Source of the DNA: Leucoraja erinacea
Taxonomy: Eukaryota
Assembly (NCBI RefSeq): GCF_028641065.1
Contig: NC_073391.1
Location: 27,404,001-27,468,000 of the forward strand
Direction of reading: 5' to 3'
Length of the DNA: 64,000 nucleotides
Positions 3,391-57,954 of the stretch are shown in pieces. Position numbers and translations under genes: made by a program. Each line of letters starts with the position of its first letter. The stretch's first letter is position 1. Below the pieces are notes generated by a model. That model was given only the letters and a program-made list of their open reading frames with translations, had not been told where the DNA came from and ran no database searches.

Positions 3391-5149
3391 TCCAATCATC
3401 CAGGATAAGGCTATAGATGACAACTATTGTTTGCCCATGGAAAATACTTTATGTATTTATGGCAGGTGGGACTAAGGGAAAATAATTGTTCGACATGGAC
3501 TTGTAGGGCCGAGATGGCCTGTTTCCGTGCTGTAATTGTTATATGGTTATATGTAGGGAAATGCATAAGTGGTCGTCATTGTACATCTGCTGCAGTCATG
3601 GATGGGTAGAGTGAATGATATTGCATTGGATTATTATTTCCAACCAACTAATTTTCAACCAGTAATACTATGATGACAAAAGTCCAGTGTTATGTACATT
3701 GCCCAAAATATTTTGTACAAATCAAATGAAGGGCACACGCAACTTCACTGAACACGCAATTAAAATGAAATGTTCTCCTCTTCCAGCTTACCATATAAAA
3801 TTAAATGTTTTACAATTATCTTCCAAATATCTGATATAATTAATAAATTATAGCATTCTTATTTTAAATTTCTGTATGTTTTTAAAAAATAAAAGTGCTT
3901 GGCAATTTATTAAACATAAAACGAATTCTGGCACTTTACAAACCCTGAACTTTGCAAGTCATTCTGTCCTTGAATTCACCATGATCATGCAAAGGTAGGT
4001 AGGACCACCTGGATTCCCACAAGCAGTCCTTCCAGAACTACAACACTGAAAAAAAAAACCTCACTATGTCAGACTACATCTCTGCATAAAGGAATAGTTA
4101 ATGCCTCTTGCAAAGAGATCAGACACAAGAACTGTTACTTTCGATTTTCCAGCATCTGCAGTTCCTGCTTAAACAAGAACTGTTAGCACTGTTTCGCCCT
4201 CCATAGATGCAGGCTACCTTACCCAAGTATATCCCGCATTTACTACTATTTCACACATTGAGCACGTGTATTACTTTGCTTTCGCAGATTCTAAAACTAT
4301 TTTTAAAAGACAGCAGCAGTTCACTATTACAATAATGCACAGAATATGGGGGGGGGGGGGATGACTATAACATGTAGACATAAAATGCTGAAGCAACTCA
4401 GCGGGTCAGGCATATGGGTTGTTCATTTGAAATATATATCTCAAAACACAATTATCTTAGTGTTACACGTTGCATTTTAACCAGCCTTAATACATGCTCC
4501 AAATAAGTCCGATTATTTAATAGATTTAGTTCCATAATTATTTATATATGTAGTTCTGCCTGCTAGATCTCGACAATAGTATAGAAACAAACATATTTCA
4601 ACATTTCTGTCCACCCAAGTCTGCATTGGTATTATTAGTCACGTATATTAAATGGTCTAGTGAAAAGTGTAGCGCAATTTACAATGCCTTCCAGACCTTC
4701 AGATTTACAAAATAAATCATGTTTTCTCTCTAGTATATCTGATTAAAAAATTATCCTCATTCGAAAAACCCTAACCCCTCCTCCTCCCAAACCAAAATGC
4801 TTCACGTTTAAACAATGCTTACACGCTAACATTTAAGAGCCTTCTTGTTTACAAATACAGTTTCAAAACTCTTAAAAATACGTCTTCAAAAATAGTCTCA
4901 CTTCTTTCGTCGTTCACGGCTAGGGAGTAGGGAGGAGACTTTAGTTCTTGTATTTCTCCCCCGCCCCCTTTTTCCCTTTTGCTGCTGAATAAACACATTA
5001 CAAAATGCCCTGCCAAACGAGTTACCTCAGTGCCTGCAGAATCTGCGCAGACTTGACGCGAAAAGGGAAACCCATCGTATTTTTTTCCCCCAAAATAAAT
5101 ATATATTACAACAATGTGCATTTCCGCTTTTTTACGGTTCCCACAACAG

Positions 5150-5830
5150 AGTCGCCCTCACACCAAACAACGCCCATCGCAGCCAGCTGGCCATCCCGCC
5201 CCGACCGACCGACCGGCCATCCCGCAGTGGGTGCATTCGCTGCCTTTACCTGCTCCAAGCGAGTGGCGAGCTTTTCTCTCTCTCTGTCTCTCGCTCCCCC
5301 ACTCGCCGGCTGCTCCCTCGTCCCTCTTGCTCTTCTTCCCCGAGGTCCAGGCCCCGTTGACAGCCCGGGCAGCCGTAGGACAACAACGGCCCCCTATCAG
5401 CCTCCCCGCCGCCGCCGCCGCCGCCGCCGCCCAGCTCCCTCTCGCTCCGGTCTATTCCGGCCCGGTCTGGTCCGCTCCGCTCTACCCAACGCTAAAGTCT
5501 CGGCTTCGACGGCCGCCCGTAAACAGGAGTCTGTGTATTGATGATATATTTGTATTGTAACAACGAGGCCCTGGCGGAGGCAGTGTCCGTGTGAGTGAGT
5601 GAAAGTGAGACACAGACCCAACCAGCCAGCGCCCGGCCCTGTGCCGCCTCTCGCACTGCGCTGCGCTGAGGGGCGACGCGGCGACACTCAGACGCTGCAC
5701 CTCCCCAGCCCTCCGCACCGCCGCCATGGCGTCACCGATCCCCATTAGCTCATCGCGCACCGAGCGCGCCCCCGCCCGCCCGCCCGCCACAGCGTCGGGG
5801 TCGCGCTTTGGGAGATTTCTCGTGTCTGCC
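5150..5830. promoter_or_regulatory. CpG island, probable SHOC2 promoter; non-coding first exon on minus strand (~5250-5480)
   Basis: Very GC/CpG rich, (CCG)n at ~5406-5430, minus-strand donor GCAG|GTAAAG at 5250/5249, plus-strand GTGAGT at 5591/5595. SHOC2 identity only from conserved PDCD4-BBIP1-SHOC2 synteny. Confidence 0.6.
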
Positions 5831-6604
5831 CTTCTGTTGTTACAGAAAACCTCAGCTATGGAGGTTCGCTTGGGCAGCTTACATCCCGGGTCTCGACTCG
5901 AAACGCCACCCATTCCTTCTCTCCAGAGATGCTGCCTGTCCTGCTGAGTTACTCCAGCATTTTGTGTCTATCTTAAACCCCAAGCAATAAGAATATTGAC
6001 TTCTCTAACTTCAAGTAACCCTTGCCTTCCCTCACTCTCCACCTTCCCCTATGCCCGTTCTCCGACCAGTCTGAATGTCCCCCCATCACATTTTATCTCC
6101 GTTTGCTTTGTTGTCAACTTTTCCTAGCTAACAATGATCTATTCTACAATTTCCTTGACCTCTATCCCTTTTGATGTCTCGTTTTCACGCCTTACCCTTA
6201 TCTCTGTGTCTCCCTCTACCCTCAATCTGAAGGGTCAAGACCCAAAACTTCACCCATTCCTTCTATCCATGGATGCTGCATGTCCCGCTGAGTTACTCCA
6301 GCATTTTGTGTCTATGGGTAACCTTGGTTCTGTAATGTGGATGCCATGGATTGAATAGTTTCGTATCAGTTTTGAAAAATTGGATCCACTCCCATAAGAA
6401 TTTTGTTAAAGGTGAGGTGGAGCATAGCCTGAAGAAAGAACAAGAAAAGTGTTGGGTTTAGGAGAAGCTTGCTTTTCAGTAAGTATTTCTGAATCCAATG
6501 CTTCCTTTATCAGTTCTGATATTATGCGCTTGCAATTATTGAAAGATGTATTGTATGCAGTGGTACTGAACCTTACTGACCCAAACAGCATCTCAGTTTT
6601 GTTT

Positions 6605-8014: not shown

Positions 8015-10352
8015 TGTAGAAGAAATTAATTTAGAGGGAAATTAATGGAAAATGAAAAGCAGAAACTTTACAGATTTGCTTCGAGATTTTATTGCATAAC
8101 ATCATGTAGAGATGGCTGCAGTAAAACTGCTCACCAGTTCTCACTGAGCATGTCTTCCCAGTAATGGGAGAGGTCCTGTTCTAGAGATTATAAAAATATC
8201 TGTAAGGGGCCTGACACCCTCCCTTTCCATGTTCACAAGAGCTGTTATCACATTTTCCCATGACTTATTTTGCCATTCTAGATTAACCAATTTAAATGCT
8301 TGAGCCTGTCGGGGCAGCAAACAATTTACTAAAGTTTGACCAGCTAGAGGCCAATTTTCAGCTACGGCCACTCTGACATGTTCCTCCCACTTACTCTTAA
8401 ATCGGGCTATAAAATCAGGGATCGTCTCGTCTTTGTGTTGCAAGCATCGCACCACCTTCCCAATGTCACTATGTTTTCTCACTCCCCTCATTATAGCCTC
8501 CTTTCCTCTGTGGGCTAACCAGTGAGTGAGGGACTCATTTCCCTGAGCCTGTTGATCATCATATTGCTGCCACTTGCTTTGGTATTATAGGCACAAGTCC
8601 CTTGTTTCCCTCTTTCTGCTTAATACCTTTCTCCTGCTCTGGGGGCTGGTGTCTTTTCTCCATCCCTGCTATTTCCTTATTATCTCCATCAATTTTAAAG
8701 TTATACACAGCACTCCAACCATCACTAATAACACTACCATTGCAAATATTAATTGTGCTCCCATCTCGCCAAATCATTTATTTTTTAGTGTTAAGTATGA
8801 CAGAGCTAGCTTATACCTTCCCCCATCCAGCCAATCTCCATTTAAGTGATCAGCTAGATTACCATAAAGATTTACAGGACATTGGTCATCATCTCCGTTC
8901 TTTTTTATTACCACATCTGCTGCCGATCCCAGTGGAACAATGGGATCTCCTACCTAAAAGTATTTTAGTCTTTTTTATCACCTTAGCAATATTCTTTCTT
9001 ATCTGCATCTTTCCCTCCTGGACCACCTATTTCTTTTCCTCAGGCCTCCCTCCATCAGTAGGATCAGATTTTTCCGATCGACTACTGTTGTCTCCCATAT
9101 TCTTCTCTCAAGTCTGTAAAAAAGTTAGGTTTACACAGACAATATCTTGTAATATTCTATTCACAGTTTGCGCGCACCGCTCCATTCGCAAATCTTGAAG
9201 TCACCTATCAATTTTGATAGCGTTGTCTAGCACCTGCTTCAATTTATCCTACGTCCAGCGTAAGTTAATTATCTTCTCCACTATTTGCCTCACCCCACAG
9301 GCCTCGTTGCTAAGCGCGAGTCACCAGCCAATTAAGCTAGGTGGCCTGGGGGTTCTCCCTTCTTTCTGGGAAACCCCCCTGTCCCTCTTTCTGTAGGGAC
9401 TATTTTATTATTCCCTTTTATTTCCCCTAGTATTTGTTCAAATCCCGTTACAATTGCAATCCTGCCGACTACGGCAAATTCTGTGGAAGATATTAATTTA
9501 GAGGGAAATTAATGGAAAATGAAAAGCGGAGACGTTGCAGATTTGCTTTGAGATTTTATTGCATGATATTATGGAGAGATGGCTGCAGTGAAACTGCTCA
9601 CCAGTTCTCTGACTTCACAGCAGAATTAGCCGACCGTTATACTGTGCAGTAAACAACTTTTGGTTTTCGTTAGATACAGCTATACGAAAATATATAATCT
9701 ACTACATGGGTACCAATTATTTCACGTCATAACATACTTTTCACTTAAGTTAATCTTATTCAACAACAGATGGTTAATACAAGTCAAACACAATACAAGG
9801 GCATTTTGACATTATTCTGTCTCAACTTTCAGGTGGCCCATGCCACCACCCCCTCTCCGAGCCAATCATAAGCCTCCCATCTACTGTGGTAGGGGGCATG
9901 GGTGATTTACTATAACTCCTCACAGAAAATTAAAACAAGCTTTGTTATCTCCCCTACTATTTCATGTTTACATTTACCATCCACACTTCAACACATTCCC
10001 AGACAAGAGGTAAAACGCCTAATCTTAAGGGCCTGTCCCACTTGGGCGTCATTTACATGATATCATTTACGCGTCACGATGCACGACATGGTGTGCATAA
10101 TGCGCGGATGGCGTGTGGTGACGCGCGGTCGCGCGCGGTGCCCCAGGATTTTGGGATTCACAAAATCTTTGCGCGCCACCTGCGCAAATGACTCCCAAGT
10201 GGGACAGGCCCTTTACTTTGCCGATTCCCACAAACTTCTTCTGCACCTGGTCAGGCGAGAGCTTCCAATTGTCACATCAAAAACACCCTTTCGTTACCTT
10301 GTTCAATTCCAATCAAAATTAAATAAGGAAGGATATTAATTTTTCTTCCACA
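8015..10352 (-). mobile_element. Internally deleted endogenous retrovirus: 5' LTR 9482-10352, tRNA-Ser PBS 9459-9476, decayed gag, truncated 3' LTR 8015-8142
   Basis: 8015-8142 repeats 9482-9608; LTR termini TGTGGAAGA...TCTTCCACA; PBS TGCCGTAGTCGGCAGGAT (1 mismatch to tRNA-Ser 3' end); capsid MHR-like QHKDETIPDFIARF in ORF 8141..8491; splits a SINE (7870-8014 / 10353-10500). Confidence 0.88.
10028..10212. mobile_element. PIF/Harbinger MITE inside the ERV 5' LTR
   Basis: TIR AGGGCCTGTCCCACTTGG, TTA TSD. Confidence 0.85.
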
Positions 10353-16454: not shown

Positions 16455-17490
16455 TAGGTATGTTACAATACTTACCTTCAGCGGCGCTGCAATTCTGCCA
16501 CTGGCCATGTGCGCGATTTTGGCGCGTTTGAGGGGGGGAGGGGGGTTAAAACGCGTTTTTTTTTCCGACCTGGTTCTGAATTATATTTGTTGGAGTGCAA
16601 GATGTTGCTAAAGAATCGTTCCGACGGCAGTTCTGTGTGCCTATAAAAAAAAAATTTGCACGACAAGTTAATCGCTGGAGTGATTTTAAAATCAGCTTCT
16701 GAAGCCGTCAATGCCGATAACGGGGACGGATTTTATGTAGGGGACAGGTAAAAGAAAGTAGTTTATTTTTATGTATTAAAGTGTTTCTTAAGATGTATTT
16801 AATTCACATTTTAAGTTGTGAAACGGTGATTTAGTCCCCGAACGAACCGGCAGTGTATTTGCTGCCGATATGGGGACTAAATCAATGCAACCTCAACGTT
16901 CCAAATGGTCCCGTACCAGAAAATCCCACTCGCAAGCTGATTGAAATGGCCATTAATTTACAGGTATTAAACATTAAATTCCTTCCATTTGGCCTATAAA
17001 CCCATGACAATGAAATTTAAAAATTATGTTATATTCTGAATGTTATTTGGACACTTAGGCTATTTAAAAATGTTAATCTATTCTTAAGAAATGGATAGAT
17101 GTTTAGATCTAGTAATTGAATTTTGTAATTAGCTACACTTAGGTAACTAACTAACTATATGCTTTAATTTCAAGTCATCTAAGTAAGATTGTTTCATATT
17201 TGTTTCAGAATGCTTCAATCTATAATAACTGAAAATTTATTTCAGTTCTCTTAAATTTTAAGAAAGTTATGGGCTTTTAAATGTTCTCGATCACAGCTTT
17301 TGTGTTAAGGCAATGAAAAAGCAATAGGGAACAAGATGCCAATTTCCGAGTATGAAAATGGCCATAACTTTTTTAATACTGAAGATATGAAAGTGAATTA
17401 GATGTCAAATTAAACTTCTTTTTATGCGTTATCTGATGGGATAAATTAAAGACTTGATTTTTAAAATCTCAAAATTTTGTAACATTGCTA
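16455..17490. mobile_element. ~1.04-kb non-autonomous TIR element, TAG termini, 7-bp TSD (hATw-like)
   Basis: Ends TAGGTATGTTACAA...TTGTAACATTGCTA; TSD CATAAAC (16448-16454 / 17491-17497). Confidence 0.85.
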
Positions 17491-17689
17491 CATAAACACT
17501 GAGGCAATACAGAACAACAGAACATACACGGATCACACATACTATAAAACTACAAAGAAAGAAGGGGCAGACAGACTGTTGGCGAGGCAGCCACCCGGTG
17601 GGTTATTTATTTATTTAAGTATAATTTATCAACTGAATTAAAGGTGCCTAATATGGTTCAAGAATTCCTTTAGTTGAGACTCCAGGACC

Positions 17690-18070
17690 ACCCTGGATGG
17701 GTCACGGTGGGTCCCCGGACATAAAGTGAAACAAGGAGCAGGCTCCGGATGACGTAATGCCTCGCCGTCACGTACAAAGATCGCTAATAGCTGTAAGATC
17801 TTTGGACACGTATTTTGTGACGCTGCCCGCGGCGTTACGTATGGCGGAACGCGATGAGGTCACGGTTGACGCAGCGGGAGCGCTCTGGTGCTCCGCGCGT
17901 CATCAGTGGTGACATCACCAGGGGCCGCGCGGCCACTGCCGGCCTCGTCCGTCTGTCCGCACGCGCGCACTCGGGGCCAAAGATCATAGTTGGAGACGGC
18001 AGCCTCGGGTAAAACGTGCTGGCTGCAACACTCTCGTCATGGCGGCAGACTTTCTCCATGGCAACCGTTG
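17690..18070 (+). promoter_or_regulatory. BBIP1: CpG island, probable BBIP1 promoter and non-coding exon 1, with RFX X-box
   Basis: CpG-dense; TGACGTAA at 17750; ATGGCGG YY1-like motifs; candidate donor CGG|GTAAAA at 18008/18009; X-box TTCTCCATGGCAAC at 18052-18065; ~700 bp upstream of the BBIP1 ATG exon. Confidence 0.7.
17775..17804. mobile_element. 30-bp remnant/excision footprint of the CAAAGATC family
   Basis: CAAAGATCGCTAATAGCTGTAAGATCTTTG flanked by GTCACGTA / GACACGTA. Confidence 0.7.
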
Positions 18071-18074
18071 CTGC

Positions 18075-18690
18075 CTCTCCCATATTATGTCTTCAGCTGC
18101 CTTTCGGATTCCATAGGTTCCCCTGCAACCTCTCCATACTCTATCCTCTTGCAGCCTATCCCCCTCTCCATGATGTGTCCTCCTGCAGCCTCCCCCCCCC
18201 CCCCCTCCCCTTCATACTGTGTCCTGCAGTCTCTAACGCCCTATATTATGTCCTCCTGCAGTCTTCCTTCCCCACATTATCCTCCCGTCGCCACTCCCTC
18301 CCCTCATTATATCAACCTACTGCCTCTTCCCCCTCATCAGGTCTTCCTACAGCTTCTCCTTTCCTTTCTCATGATATTTCTAATTATATTCTCTCTTTAT
18401 ATCCTGTAAAGTTCTTCCCCATTATGATCTCCCACAAACTCTCCCCACTCTCCTCTTCAGCCTGTCCTCACACAGCATCTCCCCATTCCCCTCACATTAT
18501 ATCCTCCCATAACCTCTCCCCACATTATCTTCTGTTTTGTCCTCACAGACTGTCCATTCTCCTCTCCACATTATCTTTCTCCATTCCCCATTATCTCAGT
18601 TCCCTGTTTTGTTCGCCCACAGCCTTTCCCCTCCCCACATTGTCTCCCCATTCTCCGTTCCACATTGTTCTACCACTTCTCCCTTCCCTA
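18075..18690 (+). repeat. C/T-rich degenerate tandem repeat (CCCCACATTATC-like units) upstream of BBIP1 coding exon 1
   Basis: Recurring cccacattat/cctcattat/ccccattat motifs and strong pyrimidine strand bias. Confidence 0.7.
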
Positions 18691-18794
18691 TGGCAATTTA
18701 AGCTGTTACAGTAAATAAGACATAAATATTTGTGTTATGTTTTTGTATTTTCAGGAAATTAAACATTGTAGATAAATTGTGAACGGGGTTAACA

Positions 18795-18840
18795 ATGCCT
18801 GAAGTAAAGTCCATATTTCGAGAAGTCCTTCCTAAACAAG
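18795..18840 (+). CDS. BBIP1: BBIP1 coding exon 1 (MPEVKSIFREVLPKQG); exon starts at 18755
   Basis: ttttcag acceptor ending 18754, acaATG, AAG|GTACAT donor; matches BBIP10 motif EVKSxFREVLPKQG; in-frame upstream TGA excludes an N-terminal extension. Confidence 0.93.
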
Positions 18841-21477
18841 GTACATCTTTGTTTAACTTTACTATGTACTTGTTTTGGATTGATACTTTGTTAGCTGAAA
18901 ATCCACAGTACTGACAACTTCCATCTTAAGATCAAAATCTAGAGGGAACTTAGTAAATCATGCACATTTTTGTTATGCAGAATGTTGTGCAAAAATGTTA
19001 GTAAACCAGCTTCTTCTTCTTATCGTGTCCACACACAAGATTAGTTGTTTAGCCAGAGCTGAATACATTTCTCAGCATCTGCATACAATGGTGTCTGCCT
19101 TGCGCTTCTTGTGCGTGGTGGTGGAAAGATTGGTAAAATCAGAGCCGCGACGTGAACTCTCTTTCCTTGACCTCAGTAAACCAGCTGATAGAGATCAAAA
19201 ACGTTTTAACAGATAGGGTAGTTACTGAAGGCCAAATCTGAAAAACCCTAAACCAGTTGGAACTAACTTACGTTGTTTGAATAAATTTTTTAAAACTGGC
19301 TGAGAATTGCTGTTTTGGATGGTGCGCAGATCCAAAAAAAAGTAAATGGTCTACTTGTATTGACATTTTAGAGGAGAATAACTTGCTACTTCATCCCTAC
19401 TTTTTTTCCTCCCCCATTTGGGGATGTATTGGGATGCACGTGCCATGAGTGGTTCTTCTAGTCAGAGTGATACAGTGTGGAAACAGACCATTCGGCCCAA
19501 CTTGCACACACCCGCCAATGTGTCCCAGCTACACTAGTCCCACATGCCCAAGTTTGGTCCATATCCCTCCAAACCTGTCCTACTCATGACCCTGTCTGTT
19601 TGTTAAATTTTGGGATAGTCCCAGCCTCAACTACCTCCTCTGGCAGCTTGTTCCATACACCCACTACCCATTTGTGTGAAAAAGCTACCCCTCAGATTCC
19701 TATTAAATCTTTTCCCTCATGTCCTCGATTCACCTACTCTGGGCTTAGAAATCAGGTTTCTGTAGATTGTGTAAAGTGAGTTTCAGCAATGTGCATTCTG
19801 TTCTCGTCTAATTACGTTTTCCAGAACGTTAAATTACTGATCATTTGGAGGATATAGTTGACTCGGGCAGGGAACGGCAAGAGTTGTTCGGACATGGAAA
19901 TTCTAGGGCATATGTATGGGGAAGAAATAGGACCTGTCAGTAGGAAGCACAGATAATATAAATTATGGCTTTTAATATCAGGTCCTGCCAATTATAAATT
20001 TACTCTTAAGCAAACCTGATTATATTATCTTAATGTGTAACTGGGCTATCTTTTGGGTTACTATTATTCTCACTACACCAGAGCAGTCTCCACCTGACTA
20101 ATCTTCTGAATAGTGTTGCAGTTCATATTTCACTGTAGGTTAAAGATCAGTTTTCAAATATAGTTTGTTTATAAACAACCACCAAGGAATTATAGTCATA
20201 AGGAAAATTCTTCAAAATGGGCTGAATTGGAGTCAATTTCTAAAAAAAACTCTTGATAAAGTTTAATAAATATATCATAGCAAACAGAATGATTATTACT
20301 CTAAGGTTATTCTCAGTCAAAGCTTTAGTGCTGCAAATCAAAATGTAGAAATATGATTGCATGTATTTTTAATTTATTTTGTAGAAATGTATTCTATAGC
20401 TTCTGTAATTTATATTGGCGTTCAAAGTGATCATTTACATTGTGATTGATTTGAGATTATAATTGTAGGCTATTGATTTTTTTTGCAGGCAGGCAAATCA
20501 AACATTTGTTGACTATGTCAAATTATTTGGACAAAATTAGCTTGGATGAGGGATGAAACATGTAAAAACTAGCACAAGTAGCAAGTAACAGAACATTTTA
20601 GACATTCATCATTTAGATTTTCCAATGACCCAGTGGCATGTTATTATTTATTTTAATATTTTAGAAAATATTAACAATGCCTGCTCTGGGCTGCTCAGTT
20701 TGTACTGAGTATTCATTTCCAGCCAGAACAGTGCTGGGGTAATGAATGCACTGCTATGGTACAAGAATGATTTAGTACGATGGGTGCAAGGACAAACAAC
20801 CCAATTTATGGTAATACAACGCATAAACTGGGGTGGTTGAGGACTGGTAATACAACCACAGGTTGTCCTTAAAGATCTCCACTGTCAAGAGTGAGACCAC
20901 AGATAAACTGGAGGAACAGCACTCATTCCACTTGGGTAGCTTACAACCCAAATGGTATGAACATTGATTTCTCCAGTTTTAGGTAACCAACAATGACCCA
21001 TTCACTTTCTACTATATACCTTTCTTTTGACTTCACATTTTGTACCCGTTCTGTTTATCTCACAGACTTTTATAATCTTCCCATCTCCGGCCTTTGTCCA
21101 TCTATCTATCTGCCGAACAAACCCTCTTACTTATTCACCCATCACTTCCAAGAATCTCCCGATCCAAACCATTATATATCTATGTCCTCCAGAGATGCTC
21201 ACAAAATGCTTGAGTAACTCAATGGGATAGAGAGCATACCTTTTTGAAAACCAGCATCTACAATTTATCTACGTAAACTGGGGATGTTCTCAGAGAAGGT
21301 GTTTCCACTGTTGTACAACCAGGGAACCGATTTTTAATGTGATTGCAAGACAATTAAGAACATTCTGAAAAGCAAATGACAATAAGATGTCAGTTGCAGA
21401 TTCAGTTGTCTTAAGAATAATGCAAAATGACAGCAGCAATACAGCATTTTTTATGTTCCTTAATGTATTTATGTTAG

Positions 21478-21632
21478 GTCAACTCTCCTTTGAGGATACC
21501 CCAACTATGGTACTCTGCAAACCAAAACTGCTGCCACTTAAATCAGTAACATTGGAGAAGATGGAGAAAATGCAAAGGGAAGCAGAGGCTACCATACGGC
21601 AACAGGAGCTGGCACAAAGACAACAGCAGTAG
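21478..21632 (+). CDS. BBIP1: BBIP1 last coding exon ([50 protein letters not shown]); 66 aa total
   Basis: ttag acceptor, hallmark [16 protein letters not shown]; 46+155=201 nt. Confidence 0.96.
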
Positions 21633-49509: not shown

Positions 49510-52272
49510 TATAACAACCAATATAGAACAACAACCAAAAATGTGTAAATTGTTGAAAAGAATTGGTAAAATTTTGATCTGAACATCAACATCATTAGAT
49601 TCTCAACCAAAGACCATTGAAAATACCCACGAGGGGGGACAGGAATCAACCAATCCAAAACAATTATATAAACAAAGAATTTGCCTTAGTTGTTCCATGA
49701 TAGTTTAAAACAAGAGAAAACATTTAACCCTAATTTGAATTAGGGTTCTTGTTAATTAATAACTTTTCAAGTGTTGACATGCCACAGGCTAAGAGCTTTT
49801 GTGAAATTATTACGTCAATTACGAGAGATCTGACCAACAACTGGGAGATGACATGGCTTGATTCGACAGCTATTACAAGAAATTCACTGCCTATCTTTTA
49901 AAATAAAGGTCCTGTAATATAAATGATCATGATTTTGACTGGGTGAATCATGAATTATAATGCTGATTGGCAAAAACATACCATAAAAACATACAAAAAC
50001 ATAGAAAACTTAAAGGGGGGGGGGGGGGGGGGGGGGGTTTGAGGAGAAATTATATAAGGGAAACATTAACTGAAGTATGAGAAACCTATACCTTACATAC
50101 TACAAAAATACAAGTTTTAACAACACATCAACTCACAAAACAAAATACTCAAGGTTTCCTAAAGAATAAACTAAAGAAAGGGTGCGTCAGAACTTTGGAC
50201 TAAGGCCATCCCTTTGGCACCACAGATGCTGTTTGACTGCCGAGCTCTGCCAGTTGTTTACTTATTGCAACCAAAAGCTGTCGGTGAAGGCAGGAGTTCA
50301 AGAGGAATGTAGATTTCACGGAAAGATACAGCACAATGCTGACAGGAACAAGGTCACAAAGATTTAAATAAAGGGGGCGAGACGTTTAACGAGGTCTTAA
50401 TGAACCAACACAACAATGACGACTAATGAGATCTGTGTAGTGTTATGCAAGCACTTAAATTTATGCATTATGAAAGTTGAGAGGTTGTCCAGAAAAACAT
50501 TGAAAGACTTACTGTGTAATAAGGAACTGCAGATGCTGGTTTAAACTTACAAACAACTTACTTTTGAATGTGCTAAAATGAGAGATGATCTTATAGAAAT
50601 ATATAAGACTATTAAGGGATTGGACACGCTAGAGGCAAGAAACATATTTCCGATGCTGGGGGAGTCCAGAACCAGGGGCCACAGTTTAAGAATAAGGGGT
50701 AGGCCATTTAGAACGGAAATTAGGAAAAACCTTTTCACTTGGAGAGTTGTGAATCTGTTGAATTCTCTTGTCTCAGAAGGCAGTGGAGGCCCATTCTCTG
50801 GATGCTTTCAAGAGAGAGTTAGATTGTGGATGATCAACCATGATCAGTGAATGTCGGTGCTGGCTCGAAGGCCCGAATGGCCTACTCCTACAACTATTGT
50901 CTGGCTACTGTTAAGATTACTGATAGTGACACATCCTGAAGGAAAACAAGACCCTTTCTGCACAAAGTGCATGGCAATCAGACTGAAAATGTACAGAAAG
51001 TGGCAAAGGAAAATTACCCCAAAACAAGAATCAAATGACAGATTTACTGCTTTGGTCTGTCTCGCATTTTAAAAATGGCTGTATTATCAAACCTCAATAC
51101 CAGTTAGTCTTCACTTTTTCTTCAGTAACATCACTATCATATTTACTGAAAAACAAGAATTGCAGGTACACATCATGGATAGCCACCCACACCCAAACTG
51201 CATCAAAAATGTTACAAGCTAAGCATTTAAATTTACTTCTAATTACATTTTTACTTAACAGATTTACAGTTTAGTTGAATAATCCTACTGATGCAAATGG
51301 CAGCCTGCGTTAGATGGGTTCTGAAGCATAATTCCAAGATTTAATCTGACAAATCGTACCACGTACCGAGACATGATGCACTCTTGAAAGCAAGTCACAA
51401 GGGATGGTAAATTATGCTTCAGTTTACCTGTTTCCATAACTCAAGCATGTATAATACCTGCGAGCCGATCCAAAAAAAATCTCATGGCCTGAAAAGCTAT
51501 CTCAAGCATCACAAAATTAAACAGAGATCTGATTTATTCATAACTGTCTGCATGAAACTGCTACTGCATTCATTTAATTAACAATCAAACACAAAAACAA
51601 TTATTTGTTAACATGTTACTGGCAGAAGTATTACAAAGCAACAGGATATAAATATAAATAAATATTTACAACCCCAAAGGCAGTAAATAAAACCCAAAAT
51701 ACCAAGATTGCCTGGAGAGAATAATTAAGGTTGCTTTATTTTAAACTAATTTAAAAGGCAATGATTGATCGTGGTAAGGAGCCCCTAGCTTTGTCACAGA
51801 TTTAAATGATTCCCATTAGTTTAACTAAAAACAAAAGGAGGCGACAAGAAACCTAACAACAGACAAAATAAAGAGATAAAGCCCAGAATGTTTAGAATAA
51901 AAAGCCTTTATTATAATGTGACCAAAGTAGTTGTTGGGGAAGGAAGTCAAATTAACCCAGTGGCTCGACCACAGCACGTGGTGTCTGCAACGTGCTGCCT
52001 TTAAAAGTTATTTAACTTTAAAGTATTTACTTTTGAAGGCAGCAACATGTGAAAACAATGTTTTTTTTTTATTTTAAACGTCCTTTTTTAATGATCGAAA
52101 TATGCAAATAGAAAGTGGAATGCAAAATAAAGATTTAAATCCTAAACCAGTTTACCTTGCACGTACTGAACAAAATTTTGCATGTATACATGTTTGTACT
52201 AAGGGTCCTGCAGATACCACTGAGTCTGTCATCGTTGGCACATTCTCTCTCTCACACACACACACACAGTAC

Positions 52273-52318
52273 CTGCTGCTGGAGGATTGCTGAATTTCGG
52301 CTCTGCCTCTGTTGCCAT
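52273..52318 (-). CDS. PDCD4: PDCD4 coding exon 1 (MATEAEPKFSNPPAA, phase 1)
   Basis: ATG in strong context (aatATGG) inside a CpG island; 46 nt to CAG|GTACTG donor; phase 1 matches next exon; MATE(A/V)E start resembles teleost Pdcd4 N-termini (recall). Confidence 0.85.
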
Positions 52319-52329
52319 ATTTGCAAAGA

Positions 52330-52890
52330 AATCGGGATCGGTTCGAAGGGCTGTTTATGTTGCCGGGGGTGGGGGTAATTCGCTGCTCCCTCTCACCCCA
52401 CTTTCCCTTTCCCCTTCCCCTCCAACCCAGCGCCTGCAGCGCCTCGAACTTAAATGAAAACAAATCCGTTCCTCTCAGACCCAGTCTCTGGGAGCAGAAG
52501 GCTTCGGGGATTCGGCACAGATGTATGATTACGATGGGAGAGTGTTAAGGGTGCAGGTTGCCGTGGTTTGTTGCTGTCGAGAGCTATGATTTCATTGACA
52601 ACGAGCTACTGCTGCCTACGACCCCCCTCTCAACGCTTGGCTTCCAGTCGCTTCTGTTTGTTTTCCTCCCGCGACCTCGCCTCACGTGGGTAGCAACAAC
52701 GTCGTCCATTCGTCGCCAAGCCGCCGACACGTCCAATCGCCGGAGCGCTTGCACCGATGTTGGTGCTTCGCTGCCGCGACCAATCAAAAATGACGTATCT
52801 TCCCCCCCTTCCCTCACCCACGGGGAGGCAGCAGCCTGAGGGGCTGAATGGCCGCAGCCAGCTCGCTCGACTATGAGCCACGTGAAGGCC
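52330..52890 (-). promoter_or_regulatory. PDCD4: PDCD4 CpG-island promoter / 5' UTR
   Basis: CpG-rich; CCAAT at 52733-52737 and 52780-52784; CACGTG E-boxes at 52683 and 52879; TGACGT at 52791; immediately upstream of the ATG exon. Confidence 0.8.
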
Positions 52891-52896
52891 CTAAGG

Positions 52897-53095
52897 CAGG
52901 GGTTCCCAACCCTTTTTCGACCCATGGCAACTTTAATAGTACATAACAATGTTATTTCACTTATTTATGTACCAAATATGATGAACAGATACCAGTATAC
53001 CAGAAGCAAACACAGTCAGTCAATGAGAAAATGTTTTTACAAATATGTCCAAATCCAGAATCAACAGTAAATTTACCCCAGGTTGGGAACCCTGG
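52897..53095. mobile_element. hAT Charlie-type MITE at the PDCD4 promoter edge
   Basis: TIR CAGGGGTTCCCAACC / GGTTGGGAACCCTGG; perfect 8-bp TSD CCCTAAGG. Confidence 0.9.
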
Positions 53096-54716: not shown

Positions 54717-55264
54717 TCACGATCTCTGTAGTGTCCAAATGGCCTCCAGCTTCCCGCGAACCCAGTCTTCAGTTGCCTTGTAAATATAAGGATCTTTCTT
54801 TATCAACAAATAAACAACTTCTTGACCACTGATTGTTTAGTTTAGTCAACTATTGTCATGTGCACCGAGGTACAGTGAAAAGTTTTTTTTGTTGCATGCT
54901 ATCCAGTCAGCGAAATTACTATACATAATTACAATTGAGGCGTTCACCGTGTGCAGATACAGCATAAAGGTTATAACGTTTAGTGGAAGATAAAATCCAG
55001 TAAAGTGTTAATAAAGACAGTTTGAAGGTCTCCAATGAGGTAGATGGAAGGTCATAACAGCTCTCTAGTTGGTGGGAGGATCATCCAGTTGCCTGATAAC
55101 AGCTGGGAAGAAACTGTCCCAACCTGTCATTTTCTTTTTTCAAGTTACCTGCCTTCATGGTGTTTATCTTTAGTTTTTTTAGGAGTTTCACCTACTGGGT
55201 GTGCATATTTTTGTGCAGGTTTCTGTTGGCTCTCTCTTATTAGAGAGATCCATGTGGTCTTCAG

Positions 55265-55672
55265 CAAAGATCTTATAGCAAGCAAGATAGATCACCTTCT
55301 AAATGCAATGGGCTGATGTGCAGTACGCAACAGAGCGGAACGTGGGTCTTGTTTTCATCCATTCCAGTAACCCGACCCGACCCGACCCGAGCCGATCCGA
55401 CTCGCAGTGTAATCAGCGTTGCGGGGAAACAGTTTGTGCTAATAAATTATAATTCTGAAAATGAGGAGAAGATTTTACCCAAATAACTTTTATTTTTACG
55501 AGGATGTTTCCGTAACCGGCTTCCGTCTCCGCACTAGTAACCTATGGGACCTTTAGTGCAGAGACGGAAGCCGGTTATGGAAATGGGGCCAAAAATTACC
55601 CATGAATCTGCCCATGACCGTACTACGTCTTTTTCGTCAAGAGATCTATCTTGCTTTGCTGTAGGATCTTTG
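55265..55672. mobile_element. P-element-like MITE (CAAAGATC termini, 8-bp TSD)
   Basis: TIR CAAAGATCTTATAGC-AAGCAAGATAGA / TCTATCTTGCTTTGCTGTAGGATCTTTG; TSD GTCTTCAG/GACTTCAG; internal hairpin ~55509-55583 and ACCCG repeats. Superfamily assignment is inference. Confidence 0.7.
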
Positions 55673-57954
55673 GACTTCAGTGTCAAGTTAGTTTGTATTT
55701 TTACCCAGTCAACAACGAATTCTCATTTAGCATAAAACCTGAAAGGCAGCAAAGACAACCACTCAATTGGATTCAATTTAAATCCAAGGTTCAACGAGAA
55801 AGTGCTCTGCTGATGAAAGTCTGTTTCAAAACCATGCCAAAGTAGGTTCTGCAAAATATTGGGGATGTATGAAACTTTAAGAGCAATATGTACCATGTGC
55901 TATGACTTAATTTGTAGGATATTACAGTTAATTGGCTGTTGTTAGTGATCAATAAAGGGTGTTTGGCTGGAAGGTCAATAATGTTTTACTTGTCTTTCTA
56001 AACAGTAAAGTAGAGAAGAACCTACAGACACTTCAGTTCCCATATTGGTTCTATGAAGAGGTGCTACATGAGTTAAAAGTGCTGGTGAATTGTATTAAAA
56101 AACTCTGATGATAGGTCAATTTCAAATTGGTATCTATGACCCATGAAACAAAAATGCTCAAAGTTGTAAGATTTCGTCCAATCAAAAATTCAGGATTTTT
56201 TTCTCCTTGTTCCAAAAATCACTATGAATCACTATTGGCCTATTATATTTCCTTTAATTGCACAAATAGTTAACTATCATCCCTTCTTCTCACCCCCTCA
56301 AACTTATCTCAGACCGTCAACATAGGCTGAAATGTGTTAGGCCCTGCCAGACACCAGGCATCAAAATAAATTGCTGGTGTTTACATCTTATCTATTTTAT
56401 TCAGGTGACTCAAGGCCAAACTTATTTATGTTCAGGTCTTTGTTTCTGCATATTTTGACTAAATTCTCACTATTAAGCTAAAGTATCTAATGATGTTTTT
56501 TCATTCAAATCAGAAATAATTACTGAATAAGTTAGGCTTAACCTGGCCATGGTTTTTACAGTTATTTCCTACCTTTGGTTACTTTTAGTCATTACCTGTC
56601 ATAGATCATTAAATGTTAGCATTGCATGTTGCCAGGTTTCTGCATCATGCTTCACATCTTCAGAGAAAGGATTTTATATCAGGAATTGTTACATTTATTG
56701 GCAATGAAGTGGAAACTGTAAAATATGCAAATTTGAAATAGAGCACGATACGTCTGCTGACATTCAAAAAGGAATAAATATTAAGAGAGAAAATTTGCAT
56801 TCAGAATCCTTGTTTCCCAGTTTTCAGTTATGATTATTTAAATAAGCAGGAAACAACGTACATGAAAAACCATCAGACTTCTTATATGCTTTCATAAATT
56901 AATGCCATATGACAGAATCGGATATTTTGCCCATCGAGTCTACTCCACCATTCAATCATGGTTGATCTATCTTTCCCTCTCAACCCCATTCACCTGCATT
57001 CTCCCCATAACCTTTGACAACCTTACCAATCAAGAATCTGTCATTCTCCACTTTGTAAATACGCATTGACTTAGCCTCCATTGCCGTCCGTGACAATGAA
57101 TTCCACAGATTCGCCACCTTCAGGCCGTACCGTGAGAAAATGGCGACTTTATGTCCTGATCAATATCCATTCCTTAGCTAGAATTGCTGAAAAAGATTAT
57201 CTGGTGTTTGTTAGGCCTTGCATTGTGCTAAGTGGCAGCCATTAATATATCACCTCTTCAAGTAGAAATAAGACTTTTGGTTCATGACAAACATTGACAA
57301 TGTACTAAAGTTCTGTATTTGTTTAGTTCCTGATAGAGGAGCATTAGTGCCATTTGAAATTCTCAAACATTTGAATTCTCAAATTAAAGACTAAATTTTA
57401 ACAGCTGGTGGGAAACCTTGTTGCTGAGTTAATCCTCTGTCTGCTGATATCAGAAGCTAGTCCATCTGATTGTATTGCCCATGTAGGATTTGAAATGAAA
57501 CATTGCTTCTTTTTAGTGGGTTAAAAATCATATTTTAAGTTTTTGTAAACATCTGGTCTGTAACCTAAGATGAAGCACCATCATAAAAAAAAATCTATAA
57601 TCTTTTCACTATTTCATTGGGGATTGCAAACCAGGCACAAGAATGCTGTTTGTGGGTTATGAAAGTGAATATCCACACATTATCTTCATAATTAACTCAA
57701 CATTTCATAATAGTCTTTTTGTCATCTATGTACAAGGCTGTGCTTGAATATTGTTAGGGAATTTTAACCTTGCATGTTCAGACTTGTTTTGGTACTGCCC
57801 TAGCCACCTGAAGGAAGTTACTATCCCTTTGTCTCTTTGCTAACTAAATGTTGTGTAAGGTAAAGTAATTCAAACTAGTTTTCTATTATCTCAAACACAG
57901 CCATGGGTGAATAATTGAAGGAAAAGATGGTTCTCATCTACTTACATAAGATCA

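Follow-up and report, generated by a model that had tools for sequence, protein, structure and literature searches.

A probable excision scar of a vertebrate P-type transposon upstream of BBIP1 and the inferred tail lengths of its family

Introduction

In the fly P element, the inner strand is cut 17 nt inside the element end (PMC7776569), and the donor junctions tabulated for it keep up to 17 nt per arm, plus insertions (PMC2895639). A close vertebrate parallel is the P-like Pdre2/zfTHAP9 of zebrafish. Like the family reported here, it has terminal repeats and 8-bp duplications and includes copies with internal deletions. It differs in its end sequence, in its 13-bp repeats and in its number, as it has about 50 copies, whereas the present family has 5631 intact ends; the excision results given for Pdre2/zfTHAP9 are flanking deletions afterwards, without integration (PMC10983969). 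No report of P-type scars or of 18-20-nt cuts in a vertebrate was found in searches of open-access text.

The window is the whole stretch of 64,000 nt of DNA that was analysed. An initial annotation of its letters read a 30-bp segment in the BBIP1 promoter as the footprint of a P-type excision. The best explanation, which we regard as very likely, is that a P-family element inserted into the BBIP1 promoter island with an 8-bp duplication and that its fused ends are the end-joined scar of its excision.

Results and Discussion

Fused transposon ends in the BBIP1 promoter

The feature at 17767-17812 is real and beyond chance (Table 1). As originally described, an 8-bp near-duplication encloses a 30-bp core of two fused ends, and the MITE elsewhere in the window (55265-55672) has the same ends as this core. 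The claim that about 15 bp of each end are present is correct for the right arm, which is a clean 15-nt family end, but only approximate for the left arm, in which 7 further nt, with two additional bases (a single one in organism B, below), follow 8 exact nt. Nothing other than terminal-repeat sequence lies between the two duplication copies, at this site, in the organism comparison and in the sampled scars. The arms, of 15-16 nt or less, are uninformative on the cut or tail length and fit 17 nt or longer. The segment 17775-17804, the one fused-end site in the window, is with high probability the excision scar of a vertebrate P-type transposon.

The core folds into a hairpin that beats 200 of 200 shuffles, a result that merely restates the inverted ends. 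Both duplications in the window differ by T/A at their second position, which suggested a 6-bp duplication or asymmetric ends; these readings were ruled out by perfect 8-bp duplications elsewhere and by the A in both copies of organism B.

Table 1. Coordinates of the scar, the BBIP1 promoter and gene, and the MITE in the window
Feature	Position	Strand	Basis
CpG island with BBIP1 promoter and first exon	17501..18250	.	GC 0.53-0.59, CpG o/e 0.95-1.11
Left 8-bp target-site duplication copy, GTCACGTA (organism B: GACACGTA)	17767..17774	+	Sequence, organism B contig
TACGTG copy 1 (RCGTG-type motif, function putative)	17769..17774	-	Sequence
30-bp core, two fused transposon ends	17775..17804	.	Sequence, contig comparison
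Right 8-bp target-site duplication copy, GACACGTA	17805..17812	+	Equals the single copy at the empty site of organisms C and D
TACGTG copy 2 (RCGTG-type motif, function putative)	17807..17812	-	Sequence
BBIP1 non-coding first exon, start approximate	17890..18008	+	RNA reads; spliced GT..AG to 18755
BBIP1 start-codon exon (start codon 18795-18797)	18755..18840	+	Reads, sequence
Open frame holding the last BBIP1 coding exon	21369..21629	+	Pfam BBIP10
MITE left flank, GTCTTCAG (7/8 duplication)	55257-55264		
408-bp non-autonomous P-family member (MITE); 19-nt-type left end, 20-nt-type right end	55265..55672	.	Sequence
MITE right flank, GACTTCAG (7/8 duplication)	55673-55680		

The gene was identified as BBIP1 by its Pfam BBIP10 match (E 2e-23), and 26 reads of one RNA run with the same species label (X24) cross its 746-nt splice joint. 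With the first exon beginning at about 17890, a transcription start that the short oligo-dT reads fix only approximately, the core lies roughly 80-120 bp upstream of it. Composition and first-exon reads thus agree in placing the scar inside the CpG-island promoter of BBIP1, as annotated. PDCD4-type MA3 exons follow downstream on the minus strand.

The empty site in other organisms

Contigs of four other organisms (B, C, D and E; the window is A) were compared over 17450-18150 in one run each. The alignment check proposed with the annotation returned an empty site in three of the four, in that organisms C, D and E skip exactly 38 bp, which is the core plus one repeat copy, as for an 8-bp duplication. 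The single copy at the empty site reads GACACGTA in C and D and GTCACGTA in E. Organism B keeps the scar, with an A at 17768 that makes the GACACGTA duplication perfect and with a core one base shorter, so that the scars of A and B differ by 2 changes in 38 bp.

These results show that the insertion is lineage-restricted, and the BBIP1 site provides a clean polarised example, filled in two organisms and empty in three. Because B has the most sampled words in common with the window (0.64, versus 0.42, 0.40 and 0.15 for the others), a single insertion in the common ancestor of A and B would be the simplest reading, judged from these words rather than from a tree. A full element at this site, the intermediate state, was seen in none of the organisms compared.

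The family belongs to the P superfamily

An 8-bp duplication was found in 19 of 30 MITE copies, and a 7-bp register does not fit. The ends of hAT elements also fit an 8-bp duplication, a GTNNNNAC-like target and a C/T-A-R-N-G start, and hAT excision footprints are flank-derived rather than made of terminal repeat. The profile of the GTP-binding domain (PF21788) has 38 matches in the genome, 20 of which were fetched, and 14 stitched regions were extended and searched for ends. In three of the 14, long end pairs with perfect 8-bp duplications surround P-transposase sequence, forming elements of 10519 bp (C956), 11647 bp (C3) and 9922 bp (C1), and the other extended regions have one end only or imperfect duplications. 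Since ends with perfect 8-bp duplications bound a P transposase, the family is P and not hAT. The annotated P/THAP9-type affiliation is therefore borne out, and the suggested search for an autonomous THAP transposase with these terminal repeats led to these elements of about 10 kb, with THAP, RNase H and GTP-binding parts inside the same ends.

A 773-aa frame (locus L078), 99% identical in DNA to the frame of the C956 element, contains the P helix-turn-helix (HTH), both RNase H parts and the GTP-binding domain, with THAP exons upstream. We take D230, D303 and E531 of the fly P transposase to be its catalytic residues. Acidic residues of the 773-aa frame align to these three in 6P5A, the fly P transposase, which is the sole PDB match of the frame (E 1e-42). 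Of the further residues named in PMC7776569, D528, K385, V401, S409, F443, D444 and N447 are identical in the alignment, and fly K400 aligns to R. The family thus resembles the fly P element in its THAP, HTH, split RNase H and GTP-binding domains (6P5A, PMC7776569), in its CA...TG ends and in its 8-bp duplication, and differs from it in having elements of about 10 kb with nested insertions.

Intact frames of 772-773 aa occur on six small unplaced contigs (C956, C1087, C1188, C1305, C1296 and C154). They are 98-100% identical in DNA, three of them completely so, and the flanks differ in all three copies whose flanks were compared. This suggests recent activity, with assembly duplication or gene conversion as alternatives, and the six frames are candidates for a vertebrate P element that was active until recently.

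Fused-end scars also occur inside the autonomous elements (L076-L080, L083 and L084), both ahead of the THAP exon and close to the opposite end, which indicates that members of the family have jumped into their own kind and out again. At one end, the C3 element (C3:90241341-90252987; L088, L099) and the C956 element (C956:134044-144562; L076, L096) have the same inner sequence and different outer 20 nt, and the switch falls exactly at the inferred cut; in this one case, an excised element could have been replaced by copying another copy, the old tail being kept. An inverted-repeat search for other P end types at five loci gave nothing usable.

Thousands of fused-end sites in the genome

The search for fused-end sites, in which palindromes were counted once per arm and the patterns permit no mismatches, gave 1159 at 16-23 bp, 2978 at 24-40 bp and 291 at 41-70 bp, versus 0, 4 (reversed control) and 12 in the respective controls. 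The 50 matches listed for 41-70 bp are, by eye, mostly tandem, templated or chance. These counts overstate the events, as recurrent scars with common flanks are copied inside other repeats. Independent scars with unique flanks are also plentiful. The genome-wide excess of fused-repeat footprints that the annotation anticipated is thus present. The length peak at 30-34 bp that it anticipated is not, as each length up to 40 bp is represented by about 145-186 sites, with 930 of the 24-40-bp sites at 35-40 bp, and each length above by about 10. In a sample of 49 sites fetched from the first 50 places of the 24-40-bp list, 41 carry an 8-bp duplication in which no more than one position differs (probability by chance about 0.0005 per site), with the consensus GTNNNNAC. 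Intact ends number 5631, and the 100 of them that were listed comprise, as typed by eye, 74 of 20-nt, 10 of 19-nt and 16 of 18-nt type.

The finding of identical mini-palindromes at many places would also be expected if the 16-40-bp palindromes were themselves mobile mini-elements. However, where checked, minis that have private changes in common also agree in flanks and duplication (four groups with 16 loci, L143-L158), which indicates that recurrent minis were spread by host repeats, and no mini with private changes was seen there at unrelated sites with its own duplication at each. In addition, the junctions are heterogeneous and the minis have no inner end sequence. Self-mobile minis are accordingly very improbable, and this reading was rejected on the common flanks.

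Island-like 100-bp flanks were found for 14 of 41 scars, versus a single case each among 29 MITEs and 30 intact ends, with 11 of the 14 scar sites inside repeats. When sites in repeats were dropped (28 of 42 scars and 16 of 29 MITEs), 3 of 14 scars versus 0 of 13 MITEs were island-like at 400 bp (Fisher p 0.22), and the CpG density was 3.7 versus 2.0 per 100 bp (p 0.005). The signal of promoter enrichment is weak, and enrichment is not claimed.

Arm lengths and the position of the inner cut

For the commonest end type, 1315 arm matches reach nt 20, of which 1224 stop there, 55 stop at nt 21 and 36 reach nt 22 or more. The extra base of the 55 is mostly explained by the partner arm, and 13 of the 36 are 30-bp sites that can also be read as 20+10, and 8 of the 36 clearly run on. 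Blunt 20+20 joins occur at four places among the 100 matches listed, and no blunt 21+21 join occurs among the 55 nt-21 rows. In the duplication sample, 19 of 82 arms reach nt 20 and one passes it.

The 18-nt end type yielded 983 arm matches with two blunt 18+18 joins, and the one of these joins that was checked has a perfect duplication; the next two bases of the end continue in none of the 100 matches listed. The 19-nt end type is rare (35 rows), and its overrun, with 3 of 35 going two or more bases past the predicted cut, exceeds that of the other end types.

These arm lengths, which reach and stop at nt 20 or 18, do not agree with the 17-nt cut assumed from the fly in the annotation. The inner cut is probably not at 17 nt, as read from the arms, and tails of 18-20 nt across the family are quite likely.

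A 17-nt cut, or a blunt one, as in the fly, could have left longer arms through repair synthesis on the sister chromatid or through host deletion between the terminal repeats. Synthesis followed by end joining is given as the commonest outcome at fly P breaks (PMC2895639), 22-bp products at a 6-nt overlap are common here, and the 8 overrunning arms lie clearly past nt 25. However, this explanation predicts a graded tail, and sites with a 5-nt overlap at nt 21-25, for which the 13 such 30-bp sites stand against 1224 stops at nt 20; the sampled arms have the same sharp limit, and the stop shifts to 18 with the end type. We consider it improbable.

The excision reading itself is upheld by the genome-wide excess, the sharp arm limit, the end-joining junctions and the empty site in three organisms. 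The scars resemble those of the fly P element, whose junctions also contain terminal-repeat sequence only, with short overlaps, blunt joins and templated insertions (PMC2895639, Tables 2-3). They differ in being thousands of fixed genomic scars, versus laboratory junctions in the fly, and in inferred tails of 18-20 nt that vary within the family, versus 17. On these comparisons, the family appears to follow the fly P scheme of excision and subsequent end joining and shares the P-superfamily features tested, but its arms exceed the 17-nt limit. The family indicates that a long staggered cut is at work in a vertebrate germline.

What could set the cut

Excision followed by end joining would proceed as follows. 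Insertion of the element, with duplication of GACACGTA, would date to an ancestor shared by A and B. The transposase would then have cut one strand at the element edge and the other within the terminal repeat, so that the chromosome retained single-stranded 3' tails of transposon sequence. End joining would have trimmed these tails and joined them with short overlaps, blunt joins and templated extra bases. In this family the tails would be 20, 19 or 18 nt by end type, ending just before an internal AAGAT. Once cut, the inner strand would begin, at its 5' end, with this AAGAT, which could base-pair with the tip of the transferred strand.

The arms of all three end types stop just before the internal AAGAT, a copy of end nucleotides 3-7, and the sequence would permit a fold-back of five Watson-Crick pairs in each. 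The fly strand-transfer complex has such a fold-back, which is needed for transposition (PMC7776569), and in the 23 nt of the fly P end printed in PMC11368186, nt 19-23 resemble nt 4-8. The inner repeat of that printed end thus has the same register relative to the cut as the AAGAT of the family, and a fold-back in which the tip pairs with the sequence immediately internal to the inner cut would, if it forms, be a further likeness to the fly.

We lean slightly toward the cut being placed by the internal repeat, on the register of these motifs. More tentatively, with a little under even chances, we propose a DNA-encoded register as a whole, in which a cut before the copy of nt 3-7 would leave tails of 18, 19 or 20 nt, and the 17 nt of the fly would be one setting of a general fold-back rule. 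The scars of this recently active vertebrate family would then be a natural record of germline end joining and, through the 8-bp duplication and short palindrome that each adds, would remodel promoters such as that of BBIP1. With end lengths of three kinds in nature, transposase genes that look intact and scars by the thousand, the family allows this to be tested directly.

The same scars could have arisen if the transposase were the ruler, with a fixed measure of 18 nt in one clade and of 20 nt in another that does not depend on the DNA sequence. In a quick tree of 32 rows, the clade with the 773-aa copies has mostly 18-type ends and those ends that were located in a second clade are 20-type; as end type partly tracks the transposase clade, such a protein ruler stays a rival. 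Overlap joins at GC could, moreover, mask one or two trimmed bases. On the other side, scars with mixed 19+20 ends and unique flanks occur, including one blunt 19+20 join (at C209); MITEs with mixed ends exist, with 37 ends of 19-type and 18 of 20-type among the 55 scored; and the C3 element joins transposase sequence of the first clade with 20-type ends. A protein ruler is rather unlikely.

The duplicated TACGTG motif

The minus-strand TACGTG noted in the annotation as duplicated is present in both copies, at 17769-17774 and 17807-17812, now 38 bp apart, with other RCGTG and TGACG sites nearby. Because organisms C and D read GACACGTA and organism E reads GTCACGTA at the empty site, one TACGTG predates the insertion, and the scar merely doubles the motif, as is automatic for any 8-bp duplication. 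The duplicated motif is most likely a neutral by-product.

The second TACGTG could have been co-opted, giving BBIP1 a hypoxia or E-box response in the A+B lineage, as the scar sits in the CpG island, about 80-120 bp ahead of the first exon, and is retained in two organisms. Against this, one copy pre-existed and RCGTG and TGACG sites lie nearby, the A and B scars have drifted by the 2 changes in 38 bp given above with no sign of constraint, and with thousands of scars some must double a motif of 5-6 nt. Co-option is thus a long shot, and any regulatory effect of the scar on BBIP1, for which the motif match is the evidence, is similarly improbable; as a regulatory change the scar is so far a candidate only. 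A literature search at the level of titles gave nothing on regulation of the BBIP1 promoter by hypoxia.

In the left repeat copy, the T makes a minus-strand TGACG half-site (17766-17770) that is missing from organism B and present in E.

Other observations in the window

At 18004, RNA reads with the same species label and the contigs from C and E contain 13-14 bases that are missing from the assembly, which suggests that the assembled allele has a deletion in BBIP1 exon 1. A second splice donor near 18114-18116 is used in 4 reads. Within exon 1, the stretch 17978-17996 starts with CAAAGATC, which resembles a family end. It occurs in each of the five organisms and is tandemly duplicated (19 bp) in organism C; the end-like start is an older remnant or chance.

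Two further CpG islands lie at 5001-6250 and 52251-53000. The latter, about 2 kb from the MITE, likely belongs to PDCD4, and the former may, as we assume from synteny, be the SHOC2 promoter. Open frames of 147 aa (minus strand) and 222 aa (plus strand) at 8144-9195 may lie within a retroelement remnant.
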